Positions 606 through 56,665 of a stretch of 57,962 bases of DNA are shown piece after piece. Under the pieces are notes generated by a model. The model made no database searches and was not told where the DNA came from. It saw nothing but the letters and a program-made list of their open reading frames with translations. Source of the DNA: Candidatus Nomurabacteria bacterium (GTDB lineage Bacteria; Patescibacteriota; Minisyncoccia; Phycocordibacterales; SBAW01). The translations under genes were made by a program, and so were the position numbers. Within the stretch, counting starts at the first letter, position 1; every line of letters begins with the position of its first letter. The stretch lies in NCBI GenBank assembly GCA_943349675.1, contig CALQZN010000001.1, positions 1-57,962 on the forward strand, read 5' to 3'.

Positions 606-719
606 TAAGGTCCAAAAGTAAATATGTAGTAACAACAAATTATTGCGATTCTCAAGTCTTTGCCCGCCGCAGTCCCATCCTTTTTACAGGACGAAGGCGG
701 GCTCTCACTCACAAGAGGA

Positions 720-4005
<3,286 letters not shown>

Positions 4006-4216
4006 CCTTTCTCTTGTGAGAGAGAAAAGGAGACTTAAGAACCGCAATAATTTGTTGTTATATATTTTTCTACAGTTCTAAAATCGCTTTCACGATTTTA
4101 GATTTACCTTGCCCATCTCCACTAAGCTGAAAAGACCCGTATGGGAAATTTCTCAATGGGATGGAATTTGTGTTGTCAAAGAAGCTCGCACTCTTCAGAT
4201 TTTTTCCAACAAAAAA

Positions 4217-5132: not shown

Positions 5133-5200
5133 GATATCTAAATACAGTAAACGAATAATAACGAACACTTCTATTGTAGCCCCTCTACCCCGGCTCTTTT

Positions 5201-5220
5201 TGGGTCGCTGTGGATAAGGC
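5201..5220. repeat. solo arm of palindromic repeat family A (perfect DnaA-box 9-mer)
   Basis: The sequence tgggtcgcTGTGGATAAgg matches the family A right arm (ctgggTGTGGATAAgt). It lies in the loop of the hairpin GGCTCTTT...AAAGAGCC (5192-5229). Confidence 0.6.
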
Positions 5221-5228
5221 TAAAGAGC

Positions 5229-5807
5229 CTACTTAGCACTCAAATCAAGCTTGTCGAGCAACACCTTGTGCGGATAATCCAGCACATCCCGCACCAACTT
5301 GTCATTCATATTGGCGCGGTACAAAAAGTCATTGCTTGTAAGCAGCGCATAACGTACTTCCTTCCCTATCTCAGCCTCAAGACCTCGGATGCGCTCGCGC
5401 AACTTACGTTCTTGCATTTTATCCCCCACCACAAACAGGTCCAACCTGTCATCCCAGTGCCCCATAAAAATTCCAGACAACACAACAAACTTCAGTGTCC
5501 CTGTGCCGCGAATGCGCTTTACAATGTCTGCTCCACGAGCGGGCGCGTTGAGTAATAAATTTTGGAGGGCCAGTGTGTATTCAAATTGTGTATTAAGAGC
5601 GTACCGTACACCCTTACCTCTGGTACTGCGTACCGCTAGACCAATGCGACAAAAAAGTTCTACTTCGTGGCGCGCCTCTGTGTCAGACACGCGAGCGCGA
5701 CGTGCAATGTCGCTAAGCAAAAGCGACTGGCGCGGGTTAAACAAAAAAAGTCGGAGGAGTTTTGTCCGGCCAGCTGACCCAAAGAGTTTCTGTAGTTTAT
5801 CAGTCAT
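5229..5807 (-). CDS. putative winged-helix transcriptional regulator with a nucleotidyltransferase-like C-terminal half
   Basis: The N-terminal segment LLRLFLFNPRQSLLLSDIARRARVSDTEARHEVELFCRIGL looks wHTH-like. The function is not established. Confidence 0.45.
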   Translation of the reverse strand: MTDKLQKLFGSAGRTKLLRLFLFNPRQSLLLSDIARRARVSDTEARHEVELFCRIGLAVRSTRGKGVRYALNTQFEYTLALQNLLLNAPARGADIVKRIRGTGTLKFVVLSGIFMGHWDDRLDLFVVGDKMQERKLRERIRGLEAEIGKEVRYALLTSNDFLYRANMNDKLVRDVLDYPHKVLLDKLDLSAK

Positions 5808-6233: not shown

Positions 6234-6300
6234 CTTGTCACACATAATTTCTTGCTAGAAATTTGCGCGACCCCGCCTCGGCACGACTGCCTCCGGCCGA
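6234..6300 (-). repeat. structured repeat family B, copy B1
   Basis: The copy contains GTCACACAT, the hairpin AATTTCT-tgct-AGAAATT, the core GCGCGACCCCGCCTCGG, the hairpin GGCA-cgac-TGCC, and the tail CTCCGGCC. Confidence 0.8.
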
Positions 6301-10046: not shown

Positions 10047-10630
10047 GCGTTTGTATTCACTAACCCGTAACTAGTAGAAAAATCAAATGCTTCTTGTTTT
10101 TTTTCATTCCTAAGGCGTGTATTAAATACCAACCCTTCTACTTCACTTACTCGCTGATCAATAATCTTTCCAAATTCCACCAAATTTTCACGAGGATGCG
10201 TAAGCGAGAGGCAAAAGTTTGCACGCGAGTCTTCCTCAGCAACAGCCTTCCAGGTTTCACTATCAAAAACTTCTGTTAAAAACATTTGTTGCGTAAGGGC
10301 ATACTGCAACTGCGCCGCGCGGACACGAGGGGAGTCGGGGTACTTTTCAAAAATAGCCAACTCTACATCATCCCGAACACCGTTGTTGTTTGCATCAACA
10401 CCTTCCACCGTCGCATCATTTTCTTGTTTGCTGGGTGGGGGAGGGAGGTTATCTCCCAATACGTCCGCCAGAGTAATTTTCTGCGCATGGATGTGTGCAA
10501 CAGCTTGCTGTGTTTTTTCTTCTTCTCCTATAGCCCACACACGATATAGCACCACCGCCACATATGCGGCCCCTAGAATAAAAAGTGGCCAACGCGCCCA
10601 TTGCCAAACTCGTCTAAGCGAGGGCTTCAT
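10013..10630 (-). CDS. membrane-anchored hypothetical protein
   Basis: ORF track. It has an N-terminal TM segment (WPLFILGAAYVAVVLY). ATG at M3 is preferred as the start. Confidence 0.5.
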   Translation of the reverse strand: MKPSLRRVWQWARWPLFILGAAYVAVVLYRVWAIGEEEKTQQAVAHIHAQKITLADVLGDNLPPPPSKQENDATVEGVDANNNGVRDDVELAIFEKYPDSPRVRAAQLQYALTQQMFLTEVFDSETWKAVAEEDSRANFCLSLTHPRENLVEFGKIIDQRVSEVEGLVFNTRLRNEKKQEAFDFSTSYGLVNTNACDVSVDTLAR

Positions 10631-10657
10631 GAACAAACTCTACCACCCCTACCCTGC

Positions 10658-10721
10658 AAAAAGTTATCCACAGTTTTGCTTACAAAGGACTGACCTTCGT
10701 GGGTTCAGGTGTGGATAAGTG
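10658..10721. repeat. palindromic repeat family A, copy A1 (two perfect DnaA-box 9-mers)
   Basis: TTATCCACA lies at 10664-10672 and its complement TGTGGATAA at 10710-10718. The inner hairpin is CTTACAAAGG-actga-CCTTCGTGGG. Confidence 0.85.
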
Positions 10722-10749
10722 GCACAACAGAAAGCGGTATGATTTTGAT

Positions 10750-11442
10750 ATGCGTCGAGATGCCCACTTAGCATCCGGTGAGACTTACCACATTTATAAT
10801 CGTGGCGCTCACAAACAAAGACTTTTTACCTGCAAAGAAGACTACGACCGTTTTTTGTTGCTTTTACATATAACCAATACAACAGAGCCAGTAGACACAC
10901 GAACTCTTTTTGAAAAATACAGAGGAAAACCTTTCGTGAATATATTTACGTCAGAGAAACCGGGAAAAACTCTTGTTGACGTACTAGCATTCTCTCTGCT
11001 GTCTAACCACTTTCATTTAATTTTGCGTCAAAAAGCTGACCACGGCATCAGCACGTTTCTTCGAAAAGTTTTGACCGGATACTCAATGTATTTCAATACA
11101 AAATATACCCACAGCGGTATTTTATCCCAAGGTCCATTTAAAAGTCGGCACATCGACGACCAAACTTACTTTCGTTATATTTTTTCGTATGTACATTTAA
11201 ACCCTCTTGACCGCCTTGAACCTTCTTGGAAGATGGGGGTATTTGCGAATAAAGATGCCGCTATACACTTCCTCAACACCTATAGATATTCAAGTTTTTA
11301 TGATTATTTCGTAGCCGAGAGACCCGAGAGGGCTATTCTTGCATATGATGAGCGGCCAGATTTTCTAAAAACACAAAATGATCTCGAGGAGTTTCTGGCC
11401 TGGTATGCCCCACCGCCTCTTACGAAGATTGGTCTCTTGTAA
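10750..11442 (+). CDS. RAYT / IS200-like Y1 (HUH) transposase family protein
   Basis: The HUH motif is SNHFHLIL and the catalytic Tyr motif is YIFSYVHLNPL. The start is moved to ATG 10750 because the upstream part of the track ORF is repeat A1. Confidence 0.75.
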   Translation: MRRDAHLASGETYHIYNRGAHKQRLFTCKEDYDRFLLLLHITNTTEPVDTRTLFEKYRGKPFVNIFTSEKPGKTLVDVLAFSLLSNHFHLILRQKADHGISTFLRKVLTGYSMYFNTKYTHSGILSQGPFKSRHIDDQTYFRYIFSYVHLNPLDRLEPSWKMGVFANKDAAIHFLNTYRYSSFYDYFVAERPERAILAYDERPDFLKTQNDLEEFLAWYAPPPLTKIGLL

Positions 11443-11450
11443 AACTCTAC

Positions 11451-12113: not shown

Positions 12114-12737
12114 TTATTTTGTGAACTTAAAAGAAGCCAGGATGGTGCGGTAGGCGTCGAGCGTTGCAGCCTCGTTGGCAACGTTTATTTCGTACCATAC
12201 ACCGTTGCGTTGAATTGGGATAATAAAGAACGAGCAGTCAGGGTCTGTTTTGGTTGGTTTGCAATCTAACCCATCTGGAAACATGTACGCAGTAGCAGCT
12301 TGCCCACCCACCGTCACCGTTTCAGTTTTTGAAGTTTGGTTTTTGATGGTACGCTCTTTACGATTGATAGTTACAGAAAATCTCTGGGGCGAAAACGGCT
12401 TTGTGTCGTGCACACTCACAATAGAGGGCATGTTGTTTTGAGCATCCACCATAGAAGTTTCGGGCTCTAGTACCCAACTGGATGGGTACGCGAAAGAGTA
12501 ACCAAAAGCAGCATTTGTGTACGTTTTTGTATTTGCAGCAGGGGCTGTAGTCGAAGATGGAGCAGGGGCGGCAGTAGACGCCGCACTCGTACTCGTACTC
12601 GCCACTGGAGACGCTTCTGGCACAGTAGCAACCACACCTACGTTATTAGTTGCAGGTTTTTGCATCTTAGCTACGAAGAAAATCCCAAGCCCTAAAACTA
12701 CACACGCTGCAATAACAACCATCGTTTTTTGATTCAT
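12114..12737 (-). CDS. membrane-anchored hypothetical protein
   Basis: ORF track. It has an N-terminal TM segment, an Ala/Ser/Thr/Pro-rich linker, and a GGAGG motif upstream of the ATG. Confidence 0.5.
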   Translation of the reverse strand: MNQKTMVVIAACVVLGLGIFFVAKMQKPATNNVGVVATVPEASPVASTSTSAASTAAPAPSSTTAPAANTKTYTNAAFGYSFAYPSSWVLEPETSMVDAQNNMPSIVSVHDTKPFSPQRFSVTINRKERTIKNQTSKTETVTVGGQAATAYMFPDGLDCKPTKTDPDCSFFIIPIQRNGVWYEINVANEAATLDAYRTILASFKFTK

Positions 12738-12776
12738 ACCTCCATCCTACCACTTTTGGAAAGGCGTGCTTTGTGT

Positions 12777-12840
12777 AAAAAGTTATCCACAGTTCTGTCT
12801 ACGAAGGTCAGTCCTTTGTAAGCCTGGGTGTGGATAAGTC
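12777..12840. repeat. palindromic repeat family A, copy A2 (central hairpin inverted relative to A1)
   Basis: TTATCCACA lies at 12783-12791 and TGTGGATAA at 12829-12837. The inner hairpin is CTACGAAGG-tcagt-CCTTTGTAAG. Confidence 0.85.
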
Positions 12841-15068: not shown

Positions 15069-15592
15069 ATTTTCTAATTCGAACAATTAATAATTACTTG
15101 TAAACGACGAGTAATGAGAACCGAACAGGTCTACCCGGCTTGCACGTTGCGACACGCAACTTTCTCTCTTTATCTCCTATTAAAGAAGGAGGGAAAGCCG
15201 TAGTCGCCAAAGCGCTAGCGTTTGGTAGCAAAAATGGTAGGGGAGTTTCAGTCGTTTGCATCCGTGGGCGGGACAAGGAATTTCTGTACGTACATCCAAA
15301 GTTTATGACGCAGTAAGTAGAGACTACTTACAACGCGCTTTGGGAATCTGCTTTGTTTATTCTGTTGTCAACGAACAATTCATGCAGTCTTAATCTACAG
15401 ACTCGAATTGCCGACATTTAGTCGCTACACCACAGTATATGGTGCGTTTGTGTAGAACTGCAAAAATACCCTGTGGACAACAGCACAAAGGCCGGCTTGA
15501 CCGGCGCCCCAGATATGCAGCTTCCACGTGCTCCAAATCTACATGAAACTGGGCGCATGGTCAACGCCAAACTGAGCCACAGGACTTGACTC

Positions 15593-34572: not shown

Positions 34573-35782
34573 GCATGGTGCGCATCAATTCATACACACT
34601 TGTAAGTCCCCGGCGTGCTTTGTTAAGGCCATCTTGAAGCATTGGCGTCATGCCTTTTTCCACGGCAACTTTTTGTATCTGTGCCGCAGAGGCTTTGGTT
34701 AAAATAGCTTCGCGAACTTGAGCGTCCACCACCAACACCTCATTTACCCCCACCCTACCCAAATATCCACTGTTGTCGCACAACTCGCAACCTTTACCTA
34801 TAAAAAAGGAGGACTCACGGAGTCCTCCTAACGATATACTTTCAGACAAACTTGCGTACTCACTTTCTGACAAAATATGTGCAATTTTACAATTGTCACA
34901 AATTTTACGCACTAACCGTTGTCCAATAGCTAAGGACACGGTTGATGCAACCAAATAAGGGTCGACGCCCATATCAAGCAACCGCGGAAGGGTGCTGGCA
35001 GAATCGTTTGTGTGTAGCGTCGACAACAACAAATGCCCGGTCAAAGCAGTGTTAATAGCAATGCCTGCCGTTTCTGGATCACGAATCTCCCCAACCATAA
35101 TAATGTTAGGGTCTTGGCGCAAAATTGACCGCAAACCTGTCGCAAACGTTAGACCTGTTTTTGGCTGTATTTGTATCTGTGTAATACCATTAACCGCATA
35201 TTCCACAGGATCTTCTATAGTCACAATTGAAACTTCTTTAGTGTTCAATAATTTAATAAGCGTATATAAAGTTGTGGTCTTCCCCGAACCTGTTGGTCCA
35301 GTTGCCAACACCATGCCGTCCGATCGACGCACGGTGCGAAATATTTTATTCTGATCTTCTTCACTAAAACCCAAACTGCCAAGAGTGTGTTGTTCGGGCA
35401 AGTCAATAAGTAACCGCAGCACCGCGTTTTCTCCATAATACGTTGGCGTAATAGATACTCGTACGTCTATGGGCACAGCGCCCTCCCCAACAATACGGAA
35501 GCGACCATCTTGGGCGGCCTGATGCTCATCGGTACGCAACCATGCCAACACCTTAATACGAGAGATTATTTCTGAATGAATATTTTTACTCAATAAAAAT
35601 TTTTCATGCAGCACCCCGTCGATGCGCACGCGCACTTTTACTGCACTATCGGTCGGGTCGATGTGTATATCTGACGCACGCAACAAGTGGGCTTGGCGCA
35701 CCAAAGCATCAACAAGGTCAATAATGGAGACATCGCCACCTCGGGAAAGAACATCTTCAACAGTTCCTTCATGTGGCTCCAT
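34565..35782 (-). CDS. pilB: type IV pilus assembly ATPase (PilB/GspE family, short form)
   Basis: The Walker A motif is GPTGSGKTTTLY and there is a Cys cluster CDNC...CELC. ATG 35782 is preferred because the track GTG start at 35815 lies inside repeat A3. Confidence 0.85.
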   Translation of the reverse strand: MEPHEGTVEDVLSRGGDVSIIDLVDALVRQAHLLRASDIHIDPTDSAVKVRVRIDGVLHEKFLLSKNIHSEIISRIKVLAWLRTDEHQAAQDGRFRIVGEGAVPIDVRVSITPTYYGENAVLRLLIDLPEQHTLGSLGFSEEDQNKIFRTVRRSDGMVLATGPTGSGKTTTLYTLIKLLNTKEVSIVTIEDPVEYAVNGITQIQIQPKTGLTFATGLRSILRQDPNIIMVGEIRDPETAGIAINTALTGHLLLSTLHTNDSASTLPRLLDMGVDPYLVASTVSLAIGQRLVRKICDNCKIAHILSESEYASLSESISLGGLRESSFFIGKGCELCDNSGYLGRVGVNEVLVVDAQVREAILTKASAAQIQKVAVEKGMTPMLQDGLNKARRGLTSVYELMRTMHE

Positions 35783-35805
35783 CAAACTTTGATTATATCG
35801 CTTTG

Positions 35806-35865
35806 AGTTATCCACACCCGAGCTTACAAAGGTCAGTCCTTTGTAAGTAAAACTGTGGATAACTT
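35806..35865. repeat. palindromic repeat family A, copy A3 (reverse orientation of A1)
   Basis: TTATCCACA lies at 35808-35816 and TGTGGATAA at 35854-35862. The inner hairpin CTTACAAAGG-tcagt-CCTTTGTAAG is perfect. Confidence 0.85.
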
Positions 35866-35866
35866 T

Positions 35867-36448
35867 TTACAAGCCGGTGGCGCCGAGGGACTCGTTGATG
35901 GCACGGATAAGAAGGTTGCGAGAGCGAGTAACCTCTGCCGTAAGTTCCATAGAAAAAAAGTCTGCCTCGATAAACGGTGCTATTTCTGGCGTATGCGGCA
36001 GGTACCCCAGGTGCGCCAGCACACGCAGCACCAGCACACACTCGATACTCTCGGCATCCGCATCAGTTTGGGCACGAGCTAGATAGTTAAGACCCTCTGC
36101 AACCGTTGTATATAAATCTCCCGTCGGCTCTTCGCCGTGTATAAGGCGCAGCAGCAACCGTGCGATACGGCCCGCCGCCCGACGGCGCACAGGCGACGTG
36201 CCGAGGTATTCTCTCGACAGATGTTCGGCGCCAACCAACTTCCACTCGTACCTTCCGCGCACCAACGAAAATTTACCGTGGGTCAGTGTCTCGAGCCCAT
36301 AGCGCAACTTTGACTGCTCGACGCGAGCACTGCGTGCCGCCGCACGTACCAGCCCCAGGTCTTTAGTTAAAATTGCGACGAGCGTATTGGCTTCCCCTGC
36401 CCCTTTTTTTGCAAGCACAAGCCCTTCTGTCGCAATAATTTTATGCAT
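35867..36448 (-). CDS. recO: DNA repair protein RecO
   Basis: The N-terminal OB region (ATEGLVLAKKGAGEANTLVAILTKDLGLV) and the overall length fit RecO. Confidence 0.7.
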   Translation of the reverse strand: MHKIIATEGLVLAKKGAGEANTLVAILTKDLGLVRAAARSARVEQSKLRYGLETLTHGKFSLVRGRYEWKLVGAEHLSREYLGTSPVRRRAAGRIARLLLRLIHGEEPTGDLYTTVAEGLNYLARAQTDADAESIECVLVLRVLAHLGYLPHTPEIAPFIEADFFSMELTAEVTRSRNLLIRAINESLGATGL

Positions 36449-39400
36449 GCGCCTCTAAACTTGCCAGACCGGTTGTTTGCATAATTTCTGCGCGGTGTTT
36501 TTTTATTACCGCTATTTCTTCTTCACTCCCCACAAAAGTATAAGTTGGACGATCGGCAATAGTGAGCCCTTGGTCTTTGCGCCACCCTTGGATGTGGCGA
36601 ACGATATCGCGCACCATACCTTCTTCTTTCAACTCTGGCGTGATTGTTGTATCCAGCGCCACCTCTTCTGTAAGATTTGAGTCTTCCACCACTTCCTTTA
36701 CATTCAACTCCTCTGCAATCAACGTGTGTAGTGACGCCTCACGTGGAAGTTGCTTTACCGTAAGCGACGCAAGCGGTTGGCGGATTTTAACTCCCGCACG
36801 CTCGCGTAACTCCAAACCTTTGGAAGCGAGGTCACGCACTTGTTGCATGCCTTCAATCAGTGAGGTGTCTACATGCCCTGCAGTAGGCCAGTCACAGAGA
36901 TGGACGCTCTGTGCCCCGCTTTCTGTCTTTGTGCGCAAATACAAGTCCTCTGCAAAAAACGGCATGACGGGCGCAACAAGGTGTGCCGTGGTGTGCAACA
37001 CAAAACGTAGCGTTGAGAGTGCTTGCACTTTGTCATCGCCCTCGACTTTAAAACGGTCACGAGACCGACGCAGATACCACGTTGAGAGGTCATCAACAAA
37101 GCTATTGAGTGGCCGTGTTGCCACATCAAGCTCGTACGACTCAAAACCTTTTGTAGTATCCCTCACCAACTCAGCAAGGCGCGACAGTATCCATCGATCG
37201 AGCGGGTGCGAGGAAGAGGCGTGGGGCACCACCTCTGGCGAGGCATACAGGTCGTAAAAACTCCGCACGTTGTCGAGCCGCATCAATAATTTTTTTGAAA
37301 CTTCTTCAACTCCGCGGGCAGAAAAGCGCAAATCCTCACCCCGAATAACTGGTGTAGAGAGAAGATACTGACGCAGCGCGTCGGCACCAAAGGTGTCGAC
37401 CAACTCCATAGGGTCGGGATAATTTTTGAGTTTTTTACTCATCTTGCGACCGTCTTGCGCCAACACCAGTCCATTGGTAACCACTGCCTTGTACGAGCTT
37501 TTACCAAACAGTGCAGTACTCAGTACGATCATGGAGTAAAACCACCCGCGAGTCTGGTCGATACCTTCGGCAATAAAATCAGCTGGATATCCTTTTGGGG
37601 AAAAACCAAACAGTCGTTTGGGGTTAAACGTATCGCGTACAAAAGGATAGTGGTTTGACGCAAAAGGCATAGAGCCCGACTCAAACCAGCAGTCAAACAC
37701 GTCAGGTACGCGCTTCCACTCGCCCCGGAGCGAGTCCCCCATAAGTACATCGTCGATGTATGGGCGATGCAGGTCAAGCTCATAGTTTTCGTTATGGGGA
37801 AACGGGACAAAAGGGAGCTCTGCTACCTGAGCATTGTCGAGCATTAAAGCCCGCGTAAAGCCTGTGGTAGGCTGCCTCCCAACAACTTGTTGCAACGCCC
37901 AAAGAGTCCCACCGTGCGAAACTATAAGTATGTTTTTACCACTATACCTGCGTTCAACCTCAAAAATAAACTCACCTACAGCACGGCAGAGGTCGGGCGT
38001 CACATGAGCAACCTCCCCCAAACGGGTGTCCACCATAACAGCAGCATCTGGAAGGCCGAGTTTTTGTGCCAACAGACGCGCTGTTTCTTTGGTGCGCAAA
38101 AAAGGCGACGTAACGATCATGTCTATTTTTTTTGATGCAAGCGTTCGCGCAGAAGCCAATACTTGAGCCTTACCTTTTTGCGTCAAGTTGTTATGCGGGT
38201 CGCCTTGTACATCTTCTACATCGTCAACATTTGACTGCGCTTCCCCGTGTCGCATCACAAAGTAGCTATTACCCGACCGACGCACCATACCGAGCAACTC
38301 TTCAACAGAGCCCACCACTTTAATTTCTTTTGTCTTGCTATGTCGCCATGCGGGGATGGGCGCACCCCAATAGCGGCTGCGTGATATCGCCCAGTCAGGA
38401 GCATTTTGCAGCAAGTTTGCAAAACGGCCCGGACCCACATGTTCGGGCACCCAGCGCACCTTAGCGTTTTCTTTAATAAGTTTGCTTTTTATTGCTGATA
38501 CTTTTACAAACCACGAATTTGCTGCCCAATTAAGGAGCGGGGTGTCGCAGCGCCAACAATGCGGGTAGGAATGGGTAATTTTTTCTTGTTTATATAAGAG
38601 CCCACGTTGCTGTAGATGCTCCGCAATTTTTACGTCGGTCTCCATGTGGCGACCCTTAGGCTTCACCGGCATATGGGCAAAGTCAGCAACAGTTGCAATA
38701 AATTTACCGTCATCCGTTACGTGATGGATAAGGGGTATCTTCTCCTTCTGCGCAAGTTCCAAATCCTCGGCGCCATACGCAGGCGAAAGATGGACAATAC
38801 CTGTACCGTCCTCCAGCGTCACATACGGCGCTGCGTACACGCGCCACGCATGCGTCTTATGTTTGTGCACCTGGTCGGCAAAATAATTAAACGGAGGGGT
38901 GTAGTACTTCCCCACCAAGTCTTTGCCTAAAATCTCTCCATATATTTTGGCGTCTGCGCCCAACACTTTTTCTGCCAATTCTTTAGCAACCACCACAAAC
39001 CCGTCATCTGTACGGACTTTAACGTACATGGCTTGGGCGCTCACTGCCGCCGCAGTGTTGCCCGGCAGAGTCCACGGCGTTGTGGTCCATATAAGCAACG
39101 AGGTTTCAGGCTCGTCGACAAGCGGCAATTTTACTGTCACGGCGATATCTTCGATATCTTGGTAGCCTTGCGCTACTTCGAAGTTTGACAGCGTAGTGCC
39201 ACAACGTGGACACAGATGCATCGCCTTAAAACCTTCGTACAAAAGTTTTTTACTGTACAACTTTTTAAAAGCCCACCACACGCTTTCGGTGTAGGAGGCA
39301 TCCATGGTTTTGTAGTCATGCTCCATGTCGGCCCAGCGACCGATACGTGGGATAATCCGACGCCACTCATCTGCATAGCGCAGCACGGCGCCCTGCGCTG

Positions 39401-39791
39401 CTGCATTAAACTTCTCTACCCCAAACTGCTCAATATCGCGTTTTGTTTTAAAGCCAAGCTCCTGCTCTATCTGATTCTCAAGTGGTAAGCCGTGGCAGTC
39501 CCACCCCCATTGACGCAAAACCCGATACCCTTGCATCGTGCGATAGCGAGGTATCGCGTCTTTAAGTGCGCTTTGTAAAATGTGGCCAAAGTGTGGAAGC
39601 CCTGTTGCAAACGGCGGCCCGTCGTAAAAAACATACTCGCCTTTGGGGGCAGGCTTTTCGAGCGATTTTTTAAAAATACCTTCCTTGTTCCAAAAATCGA
39701 GCACGGCCTCTTCGCGCTCGGCTAGCGGCCCCTTTTTTGACTTTTCAGGCTCGTGGTGCGCCTCTTCCCCTTCCTGGGCTTTTGAATCCAT
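36441..39791 (-). CDS. ileS: isoleucyl-tRNA synthetase carrying an inserted histidine-phosphatase-like domain
   Basis: The HIGH motif is PHFGHIL and the KMSKS motif is KMSKKLKN. The editing-domain motif is TTTPWTLPGN. An extra ~160 aa containing RHGE...SHGG lies between VGSVEELL and LDLHRPYID. Confidence 0.9.
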   Translation of the reverse strand: MDSKAQEGEEAHHEPEKSKKGPLAEREEAVLDFWNKEGIFKKSLEKPAPKGEYVFYDGPPFATGLPHFGHILQSALKDAIPRYRTMQGYRVLRQWGWDCHGLPLENQIEQELGFKTKRDIEQFGVEKFNAAAQGAVLRYADEWRRIIPRIGRWADMEHDYKTMDASYTESVWWAFKKLYSKKLLYEGFKAMHLCPRCGTTLSNFEVAQGYQDIEDIAVTVKLPLVDEPETSLLIWTTTPWTLPGNTAAAVSAQAMYVKVRTDDGFVVVAKELAEKVLGADAKIYGEILGKDLVGKYYTPPFNYFADQVHKHKTHAWRVYAAPYVTLEDGTGIVHLSPAYGAEDLELAQKEKIPLIHHVTDDGKFIATVADFAHMPVKPKGRHMETDVKIAEHLQQRGLLYKQEKITHSYPHCWRCDTPLLNWAANSWFVKVSAIKSKLIKENAKVRWVPEHVGPGRFANLLQNAPDWAISRSRYWGAPIPAWRHSKTKEIKVVGSVEELLGMVRRSGNSYFVMRHGEAQSNVDDVEDVQGDPHNNLTQKGKAQVLASARTLASKKIDMIVTSPFLRTKETARLLAQKLGLPDAAVMVDTRLGEVAHVTPDLCRAVGEFIFEVERRYSGKNILIVSHGGTLWALQQVVGRQPTTGFTRALMLDNAQVAELPFVPFPHNENYELDLHRPYIDDVLMGDSLRGEWKRVPDVFDCWFESGSMPFASNHYPFVRDTFNPKRLFGFSPKGYPADFIAEGIDQTRGWFYSMIVLSTALFGKSSYKAVVTNGLVLAQDGRKMSKKLKNYPDPMELVDTFGADALRQYLLSTPVIRGEDLRFSARGVEEVSKKLLMRLDNVRSFYDLYASPEVVPHASSSHPLDRWILSRLAELVRDTTKGFESYELDVATRPLNSFVDDLSTWYLRRSRDRFKVEGDDKVQALSTLRFVLHTTAHLVAPVMPFFAEDLYLRTKTESGAQSVHLCDWPTAGHVDTSLIEGMQQVRDLASKGLELRERAGVKIRQPLASLTVKQLPREASLHTLIAEELNVKEVVEDSNLTEEVALDTTITPELKEEGMVRDIVRHIQGWRKDQGLTIADRPTYTFVGSEEEIAVIKKHRAEIMQTTGLASLEAHA

Positions 39792-55054: not shown

Positions 55055-55118
55055 GGTCACAGATATTTTTCTGCTGAAAAATTCCGCGACCCCGCCTCGA
55101 CGCCGTCGCGTCTGCGGC
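55055..55118 (-). repeat. structured repeat family B, copy B3
   Basis: The copy contains GGTCACAGAT, the hairpin ATTTTTC-tgct-GAAAAAT, the core CCGCGACCCCGCCTCGA, the hairpin GACGC-cgtc-GCGTC, and the tail CTGCGGCT. Confidence 0.8.
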
Positions 55119-56617: not shown

Positions 56618-56665
56618 GGTCACAAGTATTTTTCCTGACGGAAAAATCTCGCGACCCCGCCTCGC
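56618..56665 (-). repeat. structured repeat family B, copy B4 (short form)
   Basis: The copy contains GGTCACAAGT, the hairpin ATTTTTCC-tgac-GGAAAAAT, and the core TCGCGACCCCGCCTCGC. It has no second hairpin. Confidence 0.8.

Follow-up and report, generated by a model that had tools for sequence, protein, structure and literature searches.

Introduction

Repetitive extragenic palindromic (REP) sequences and the REP-associated tyrosine transposases (RAYTs) that accompany them have been described mainly in Proteobacteria, and what they do in the cell is debated. Here we describe a comparable arrangement in a member of the Candidate Phyla Radiation (CPR), on a 57,962-nt contig of Candidatus Nomurabacteria bacterium (CALQZN010000001.1), the whole of which is referred to as the window. 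It carries three nested palindromes of about 64 bp, termed Family A (copies A1, A2 and A3), of which A1 adjoins a gene for a RAYT-like Y1 HUH transposase homolog (the Y1 gene). Family A is probably a composite, in which the REP-like hairpin of the Y1 gene is enclosed by two box arms for a host protein, likely DnaA.

The REP/RAYT system is represented by E. coli YafM with its REP and BIME (bacterial interspersed mosaic element) sequences (PDB ID: 4ER8). The present locus shares with it a Y1 HUH gene of class 2 (Y-x3-NP) at a fixed chromosomal position, flanked by a short palindromic hairpin that is found also in other intergenic regions. In both, the hairpin combines fixed bases with a covarying stem, and the E. 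coli protein is the best structural match of ours. It differs in that the GTAG/CGTC tag is absent, the copy number in the stretches sampled is very low, one hairpin lies over the stop codon and another within the coding sequence in several lineages, DnaA-box 9-mers bracket the hairpin at a fixed 12 nt, and the host is a CPR bacterium. Having the structure and arrangement of a REP/RAYT pair and lacking the tag, the element would be a variant rather than a plain member of this system. Full-text literature searches found no description of REP/RAYT or of a Family A element in CPR.

REP doublets forming hairpins (REPINs), which are inverted REP doublets of Pseudomonas fluorescens, are described as vertically inherited with a single-copy RAYT in two reports (PMC3116915; 10.1101/2022.05.22.493013). 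Synteny suggests vertical inheritance, probably with a single RAYT-like gene, here as well, and the long imperfect hairpin with bulges and the inverted hairpin doublets, 30–60 nt apart, of two related loci (L155 and L134; loci of relatives are designated by L numbers) are likewise REPIN-like. In contrast, the unit in the window lineage is one hairpin plus two box arms instead of two REPs, and single-figure copies occur per ~20–60 kb sampled with no sign of recent replication. Subclass 2.1 of TnpA_REP (TIRYT) contains Y1 proteins with a C-terminal Bac_DnaA_C-like or helix-turn-helix (HTH; HTH_23/HTH_28) domain and terminal inverted repeats (PMC6006769). Its flanking repeats, GGGG[AT][CG]A[CG], are unlike DnaA boxes, and no REP-like hairpins were found with them (PMC6006769). 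A long Y1 protein with a conserved C-terminal extension, a gene inside inverted repeats (in L127) and a link between a Y1 enzyme and DnaA-type recognition are common to that subclass and the present system. The difference is that the DnaA-like feature resides here in the DNA as boxes, with none detectable in the protein, and the reverse holds for subclass 2.1. The IS200/IS605 insertion sequences (IS608 and ISDra2 TnpA) are alike in the Y1 HUH fold, the subterminal hairpins at both gene ends and the lack of target-site duplication, and differ, being multi-copy, from the syntenic and apparently single gene at our locus, which is conserved throughout a class-level clade and encodes a class-2 (Y-x3-NP) protein of 230 aa.

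DnaA-box sites outside oriC are found at DnaA-regulated promoters, at datA/DARS of E. coli and in the DnaA-box clusters of B. subtilis, and Family A resembles them in having perfect consensus 9-mers outside oriC and by promoters. A DnaA box also lies in the outside end of IS50/Tn5, which would be a precedent for a host initiator acting at the end of a mobile element, though the Tn5 paper that we checked makes no mention of DnaA. To our knowledge, two inverted boxes set at a constant distance around a REP-type hairpin occur in none of these systems.

Results and Discussion

Nested palindromes built around a 9-mer

The 9-mer TTATCCACA occurs exactly seven times in the window (5209−, 10664+, 10710−, 12783+, 12829−, 35808+ and 35854−), where simple arithmetic gives a chance expectation of ~0.44 for an exact 9-mer in 58 kb on both strands. 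Its one-mismatch variants are near chance (21 in total vs 12 ± 3.7 in shuffles). Six of the seven sit inside the three ~64-bp palindromes, which form a single repeat family, with a box start-to-start spacing of 46 bp in 3/3 full copies and a distance of 12 nt between the box and an invariant AAGG on 6/6 arms. An initial annotation of this DNA had reported the three palindromes, the seven 9-mers and the fixed spacing, all of which are borne out. Its comparison with random expectation holds for the count, but the sites are not independent, six of them being copies of one repeat. Near-identical or identical genes were found on contigs from several independent ENA, NCBI and Logan assemblies, and the elements are therefore no assembly artefact.

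A1 (10658–10721, + strand) reads AAAAAG-TTATCCACA-gttttgc-TTACAAAGG-actga-CCTTCGTGG-gttcagg-TGTGGATAA-GT and is placed between the divergent starts of a 207-aa gene (ATG 10630, −) and the Y1 gene (ATG 10750, +). In A2 (12777–12840, +), the inner hairpin is TACGAAGG-tcagt-CCTTTGTA, whose loop is inverted with respect to that of A1; this copy lies downstream of the intrinsic terminator of a 702-aa gene and 39 bp upstream of ATG 12737 (−). The best-formed copy is A3 (35804–35867, −), whose outer arms are 11 bp long and whose 10-bp inner stem is perfect. It starts immediately 3' of the recO stop codon, and its right box is followed by 10 nt, TATAAT, 9 nt and the ATG (35782) of a pilB-like gene. 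As single-stranded DNA, the copies fold at −19.1 kcal/mol (A3, z −7.9), −10.9 kcal/mol (A2, z −4.0) and −10.6 kcal/mol (A1, z −3.2) relative to shuffled controls.

Some details of the initial annotation needed revision. The 10-bp inner hairpin assigned to every copy is perfect in A3 only, since A1 and A2 pair at 7/10 positions. The elements were described as symmetric, but they are oriented: the flank AAAAAGTTATCCACAGTTYT is common to all and places A1 and A2 on the + strand and A3 on the − strand, and the 5-nt loop is flipped in A2. Their location 25–60 bp upstream of minus-strand genes is roughly right, but these genes are faced by different element ends, and the distance from the nearest box to the −10 hexamer differs (21 nt in A1, 33 nt in A2 and 10 nt in A3). 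The 207-aa and 839-aa products of a supposed lipase operon have no Pfam or NCBIfam match (many open reading frames (ORFs) of the window are likewise without a Pfam family), and the gene named pilB can be specified as encoding a GspE/PilB-type ATPase. The window was correctly judged not to be oriC, as neither dnaA, dnaN nor oriC was found in it or in any Parcubacteria locus retrieved.

A RAYT-like transposase gene kept in synteny

The Y1 gene (10750–11442, +) encodes a 230-aa protein in which the HUH motif is HFH at residues 87–89 and the catalytic region reads Y147-x3-N151-P152. H87, H89, Y147, N151 and P152 are invariant across 22 homologs, and Y---NP is the class-2 (TnpA_REP) signature (PMC6006769). 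Family scores of the window protein are weak (Y1_Tnp, 18.9 bits vs a cutoff of 23; REP_Tyr_transpos, 28.6 vs 80), and its homologs exceed the Pfam threshold. A PDB sequence search gave no meaningful match, so only the fold search was informative. The AlphaFold (AF2) model, with a predicted local distance difference test score (pLDDT) of 81 and a predicted template modelling (TM) score of 0.83, found its best PDB fold match in 4er8, a complex of the E. coli RAYT with a REP hairpin (E 4.9e-5, target-normalised TM-score 0.62), followed by the TnpA proteins of IS608 and ISDra2. About 800 homologs were obtained, and those with a named source all belong to Parcubacteria, Paceibacterota, Adlerbacteria, Kaiserbacteria or Minisyncoccia. 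The gene order FtsK ... Y1 ... L10-L12 ... MscS ... rRNA is kept in L127, L128, L134, L148, L150, L155 and L158, and the syntenic Y1 proteins show 82%, 67% and 54–58% identity. Such conserved synteny across diverged proteins points to a vertically inherited, domesticated RAYT, unlike an insertion sequence.

A DnaA-domain-IV-like box reader was sought in the C-terminus of the Y1 protein and found no support. Pfam at E ≤ 10 gave Y1_Tnp plus weak sub-threshold unrelated families, with neither Bac_DnaA_C nor HTH among them, and hhalign against a manually entered sequence of E. coli DnaA domain IV gave a probability of 0.3%. The C-terminal 75 aa modelled alone folded poorly (pLDDT 57), and no DnaA structure appeared in the top 50 fold matches of the full model.

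The inner hairpin accompanies the Y1 gene

Each of the eight Y1-gene lineages sampled has a copy of the inner hairpin upstream of the gene, 2–40 nt before the start codon in the relatives. Except in the Kaiserbacteria loci (L155–L157), a 3' copy lies over the stop codon or directly before it. Hairpins on both sides are seen in the window, L127, L128, L134, L148, L150, L152 and L158, and the Kaiserbacteria locus L155 has two upstream and one inside the coding sequence, with none found 3'. The stem is lineage-specific, being TACAAAGG in the window, TACGAAGG in L128, TGCGAAGG in Adlerbacteria, GACGAAGG in Kaiserbacteria and CTTCAAGG in L158. Throughout these, the apical AAGG/CCTT is invariant and both lower-stem arms change in concert. 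For 35 distinct copies, selected by an AGG/CCT anchor and at least 7/10 pairs, two-sided changes occur at 6/10 pairs, and the covariation score is 0.383 vs 0.137 for shuffles (reached by 0/500), with slid controls at or below 0.114.

The hairpin is also multiplied without the 9-mer. L134 contains the bare hairpin seven times within 1.1 kb around the Y1 gene and TTATCCACA nowhere in 17 kb, and L155 contains nine hairpins in 16 kb, mostly as inverted doublets; dispersed doublets of this kind, 30–60 nt apart, are present in both loci. In L127, the Y1 gene is placed between 56-nt inverted repeats that are 95% complementary. The conserved parts of the element are the apical AAGG/CCTT and, in some lineages, TTATCCACA 12 nt off. 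Upstream of the Y1 gene in L128 (9890–9962), we also observed a doubled inner hairpin, TACGAAGGtcagtCCTTCG-a-CGAAGGactgaCCTTCGTA, enclosed by TTATCCCCA and TGTGGATAA, in effect a palindrome made of palindromes.

In several relatives, the Y1 coding sequence itself contains a hairpin copy at codons ~56–62, where it encodes the motif K-Y-x-G-x-S-F (L134 and L150, both 10169–10189; L152, 2272–2292; L155, 10167–10185; L158, ~10175–10195). It closely matches the flanking hairpins of its own lineage, exactly so in L134, L150 and L155, and the encoded residues vary with it (YKGQSFV, YQGRSFI, YEGESFV). A degenerate counterpart, TACAGAGGAAAACCTTTCGTG (10918–10938, +), encodes YRGKPFV in the window gene. 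Because the Y1 residues shift with the hairpin, a constraint at the DNA or RNA level within the coding gene is suggested. Taken together, the flanking copies found everywhere, the covarying stem, the stop-codon overlap and the copies within coding sequence identify the inner hairpin as a REP-like partner to the Y1 gene, and by analogy we infer that the Y1 protein recognizes and cleaves it. The proposal that Family A elements are REP-type substrates of the adjacent Y1 transposase is supported by these comparisons for the inner hairpin only, which flanks the Y1 gene and covaries in its stem, and by the RAYT-like fold of the encoded protein.

A1 as the joint of a gene inversion

The Y1 gene points in the same direction as its neighbors in all relatives and in the opposite direction in the window. 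By BLAST, window positions 10661–11442 are opposite in orientation to both flanks when compared with L127 and L128, which places the breakpoints at the center of A1 and at 11442–11449. The halves of A1 match two different elements of the relatives (U-right and D-right): one half resembles the element by the Y1 start codon, and the other the element by the 230-aa gene. At the other junction lies a decayed half-element (11419–11442, +), CTTACGAAGA-ttggt-CTCTTGTAA, which encodes the Y1 C-terminus PLTKIGLL*; the relatives have at this position a full hairpin followed by TGTGGATAA. Since the A1 halves match two elements and a decayed half remains at the second junction, the two flanking palindromes have recombined, and A1 is the recombinant joint of a Y1-gene inversion between them. 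The exchange would have proceeded by homologous recombination or by Y1 strand exchange.

The box as a module of its own

The seven TTATCCACA sites match the DnaA-box 9-mer TTWTNCACA, and the box arms are a module separate from the hairpin. TTATCCACA accompanies the hairpin in the window, L127, L128, L141, L165 and a distant Adlerbacteria locus, where the arrangement is box-gttct-hairpin ... hairpin-Y1-hairpin-N8-box with the boxes beside the outer hairpins. None of the hairpins of L134, L155 and L158 carries it. The box occurs, in addition, without any hairpin: stand-alone boxes are TTATCCACA or TTGTCCACA, the latter being off the strict consensus at position 3 (W = A/T). TTGTCCACA is the box form used in actinobacteria and a known variant of the DnaA box. 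At orthologous sites of seven lineages with diverged flanks, TT(A/G)TCCACA is followed by a TTTTTGC stretch and then by a −10-like hexamer 28–32 nt downstream, the promoters here being consensus matches to −10 hexamers. One such site of the window (15434–15480, −) consists of TTGTCCACA (15480–15472), a TTTTTGCA stretch and TATACT 32 nt downstream of the box, and this architecture is found upstream of a large gene with a peptidoglycan-binding domain in seven lineages. Another (5173–5217, −) consists of TTATCCACA (5217–5209), 30 nt and TACAAT (5178–5173) upstream of an MscS-like gene, and is kept in L127 and L131. The 5209 site had been taken for a solo arm of the palindrome; it lies outside any palindrome, as a stand-alone box 30 nt upstream of TACAAT that two other lineages retain.

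Two observations concern these promoter regions. The 15472-type site stands ~350–400 nt upstream of the large gene, in the window (15086–15440, −) and also in L127, L128, L134, L148, L150 and L158; the 15086–15440 stretch has no long ORF and no Rfam match and could be a long leader or an unrecognised RNA. Around the Family A copies and the Y1 gene, −10-like hexamers lie only 6–9 nt upstream of start codons (TATAAT, 35782–35800, pilB-like gene; TAGAGT, 10630–10650, 207-aa gene; TATGAT, 10738–10752, Y1 gene; TAGGAT, 12737–12755, 12737 gene), and such short distances, as read from the sequence, suggest mRNAs with little or no leader.

In 229 kb of non-redundant loci, 31 TT(A/G)TCCACA 9-mers were counted vs ~3.5 expected, of which 16 are beside hairpins and 10 are in promoter geometry, the remainder being at about chance level; the background frequency of a −10-like hexamer in that geometry is 0.09. 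A trans-acting protein very probably binds the box. DnaA suggests itself as this reader because TTATCCACA is the canonical DnaA box, and the stand-alone boxes near −10 hexamers lend indirect support to the idea of DnaA-regulated sites. The suggested roles in DnaA titration and as cruciform insulators found no support.

These features raise the question of whether Family A consists simply of protein operators, namely site pairs by which DnaA or another dimeric or oligomeric regulator controls promoters, with the hairpin incidental or a spacer. This is a possible account, though we hold it to be rather doubtful. It draws on arms that are perfect to the DnaA-box consensus on 6/6, on the fixed 28–32 nt between lone boxes and −10 hexamers at the orthologous promoters of seven lineages, and on the position of A1–A3, all in promoter-containing intergenic regions. 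The A3 right box, moreover, holds 10–11 nt to the pilB-like −10 in three lineages while the intervening sequence diverges. However, such operators leave unexplained both the box-free hairpin that brackets the Y1 gene and is multiplied around it in L134, L152, L155 and L158 and the compensatory changes of the stem. The distance from box to −10 also varies among the copies (21, 33 and 10 nt) with different ends facing the genes, one arm in relatives is often the non-consensus TTATCCCCA, and no DnaA-like domain was found in the Y1 protein itself (hhalign 0.3%; C-terminal part folding poorly alone).

At the RNA level, transcribed stem-loops might stabilize or terminate upstream mRNAs or occlude translation starts. 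REPs stabilize or terminate mRNAs in enterobacteria, and the 5' stem-loop of IS200 occludes a translation start. A3 begins right after the recO stop codon, the relatives have one hairpin 2–40 nt before the Y1 start codon and another over its stop codon, and the elements fold far below shuffled controls, all of which would suit such a function. Yet the copies occur in both orientations relative to the nearest genes and differ in the direction of the loop, the intrinsic terminator upstream of A2 is a separate structure, the stems lack a following U-tract, Rfam has no matching family, and the stand-alone boxes cannot be RNA structures. We regard this explanation as very unlikely.

Persistence and distribution of the copies

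Strain variants share an identical A3 although their flanks differ (~80% identity toward pilB and 58 nt inserted toward recO), and A3 is likewise identical in a lineage whose RecO is 95% identical. Where RecO identity falls to 86%, A3 is present with small changes (loop ACTGT, right box TGGGGATAA), and it is missing only where the gene order differs. An orthologue of A2 is present in L128. A2 and A3 are, on these comparisons, old residents. No target-site duplication flanks A1, A2 or A3. That the copies are ordinary miniature inverted-repeat transposable elements (MITEs), i.e., deletion derivatives of a DDE-transposase insertion sequence with the terminal inverted repeat AGTTATCCACA, is extremely improbable, for the short palindromes with 11-bp terminal inverted repeats and the L127 Y1 gene inside 56-nt inverted repeats (95% complementary) would fit, but the copies are orthologously conserved and not polymorphic, no DDE transposase lies nearby, and a DDE-type MITE is excluded, as far as sequence can tell, by the absent target duplications and the associated Y1 HUH enzyme.

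Copies remote from the Y1 gene are two in the 58 kb of the window (A2 and A3), and L155 has its nine hairpins in 16 kb. Rfam gave no match at Family A elements, and sigma-70 and terminator scans reported nothing at them. A metagenome scan for both inner arms plus CACA/TGTG returned zero matches, and a second scan for the half-element returned 11 loci, L140 and L141 being the only genuine ones; the composite element therefore seems rare in public data. The viral contigs scanned gave 0 matches, plus 1 chance-like match. A scan of a genome collection for AGTTATCCACA-N30-45-TGTGGATAA gave at least 120 loci, mostly from Streptomyces and other Actinomycetota or from Firmicutes by record titles. The inner hairpin is present in 0 of the at least 120 loci listed, which probably include oriC-type DnaA-box pairs, neighboring genes having been checked for three of them. 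Inverted box pairs at L063, L077 and L018 (other CPR or Planctomycete) were considered and rejected: they are not beside dnaA or Y1 genes and are indistinguishable from chance given the collection size. The L018 pair (5660–5708; metagenome-assembled genome of Planctomycetia, between argF-like and argG-like genes) reads TTATCCACA-ata-GTAGGTCGGGCTTAAGCCCGACCTAC-cc-TGTGGATAA, a GTAG-tagged hairpin with an 11-bp stem between inverted perfect DnaA boxes in an unrelated phylum, which may be chance or a parallel case.

Proposed model of the composite element

By analogy with E. coli TnpA_REP and IS608 TnpA, the inner hairpin would form on single-stranded DNA, and the Y1 protein would recognize it by its shape and fixed apical bases and then cut or rejoin it. 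Hairpin copies lie on both sides of the Y1 gene, the downstream one overlapping the stop codon, and a few others, A2 and A3 among them, occupy intergenic regions elsewhere. The palindromic nature of each copy lets the pair around the Y1 gene act as inverted repeats, and recombination between them inverted the gene in the window lineage to give A1. Each outer arm is a TT(A/G)TCCACA box exactly 12 nt from AAGG, and the lone box would serve as a promoter-upstream site ~47 nt before the presumed transcription start. As the 9-mer also occurs alone upstream of promoters, it is most likely read by a host DNA-binding protein. The composite would thereby put the sites of that protein on either side of the Y1 hairpin, near the promoters of the pilB-like, 207-aa and Y1 genes.

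Several points weigh against this composite model. No transposition event, empty site or insertion polymorphism was seen, and A2 and A3 sit at orthologous positions in relatives. Copies are few (3 in the 58 kb of the window and 1 in 20 kb of L160), and typical REP or REPIN populations number tens to hundreds of copies. The classical GTAG/CGTC tag is absent at the stem foot of A1–A3. One arm in L127, L128 and L165 is often TTATCCCCA or TGGGGATAA, off the strict DnaA consensus at position 7. The filter used to assemble the hairpin set inflates the percentage of paired positions, though not the compensatory changes of the lower stem. Finally, the 100% identity of A3 among strains may stem from a recombination mosaic instead of selection, and L125 joins one flank type to the other around A3.

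Other features of the window

A second, GC-rich repeat family (GAAAAATTNCGCGACCCCGCCTCG) is found at 6239–6299, 47995–48055, 55058–55118 and 56641–56664. The inserts at 6239 and 47995 are flanked by 15–23-nt direct duplications of adjacent sequence (e.g., aaagttgcttacttaagctcaac on both sides), so that the family looks like a target-duplicating insertion. The 58-nt GC-rich insertion in the recO–A3 interval, whose presence or absence distinguishes strains (L121, L123 and L125 vs the window), may belong to a related family. The 23S rRNA gene (716–4009, −) matches over 3294 nt a model of 2925 positions, which corresponds to ~370 nt of insertions, and a LAGLIDADG ORF is present among the rRNA genes' surroundings in the relative L149. 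The window also carries a 5S gene and tRNAs. Its isoleucyl-tRNA synthetase (36441–39791, −), as in L121 and L160, contains an inserted His_Phos_1 (histidine phosphatase) domain, and a GcrA-family gene adjoins the synthetase gene.

Implications

This analysis documents a conserved, syntenic RAYT-like gene with co-evolving hairpins across Parcubacteria. Because the genomes of Parcubacteria are tiny with little spare DNA, the Y1/hairpin pair has probably been retained because it serves the host. Where a hairpin lies within the coding sequence and the protein residues change along with it, a constraint on the DNA overrides one on the protein with unusual clarity. The box is a first candidate cis-regulatory motif for CPR promoters, and the pairing of hairpin and box, together with the lone promoter boxes, offers a testable link from a Y1 enzyme to the replication initiator or another regulator in uncultured bacteria. 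In its strongest form, which we consider unlikely, Parcubacteria would have domesticated a RAYT-like enzyme whose hairpin sites are wired to the initiator DnaA. DnaA at the boxes would then either unwind or bend the double strand, letting the hairpin extrude and become accessible to a Y1 protein specific for single strands, or couple Y1 to replication. If this were true, Family A would constitute a small set of promoter switches controlled by DnaA and Y1, for example at the pilus/competence ATPase, and the hairpins of the Y1 gene would form a self-regulating or self-rearranging circuit, with the gene inversion as one output.

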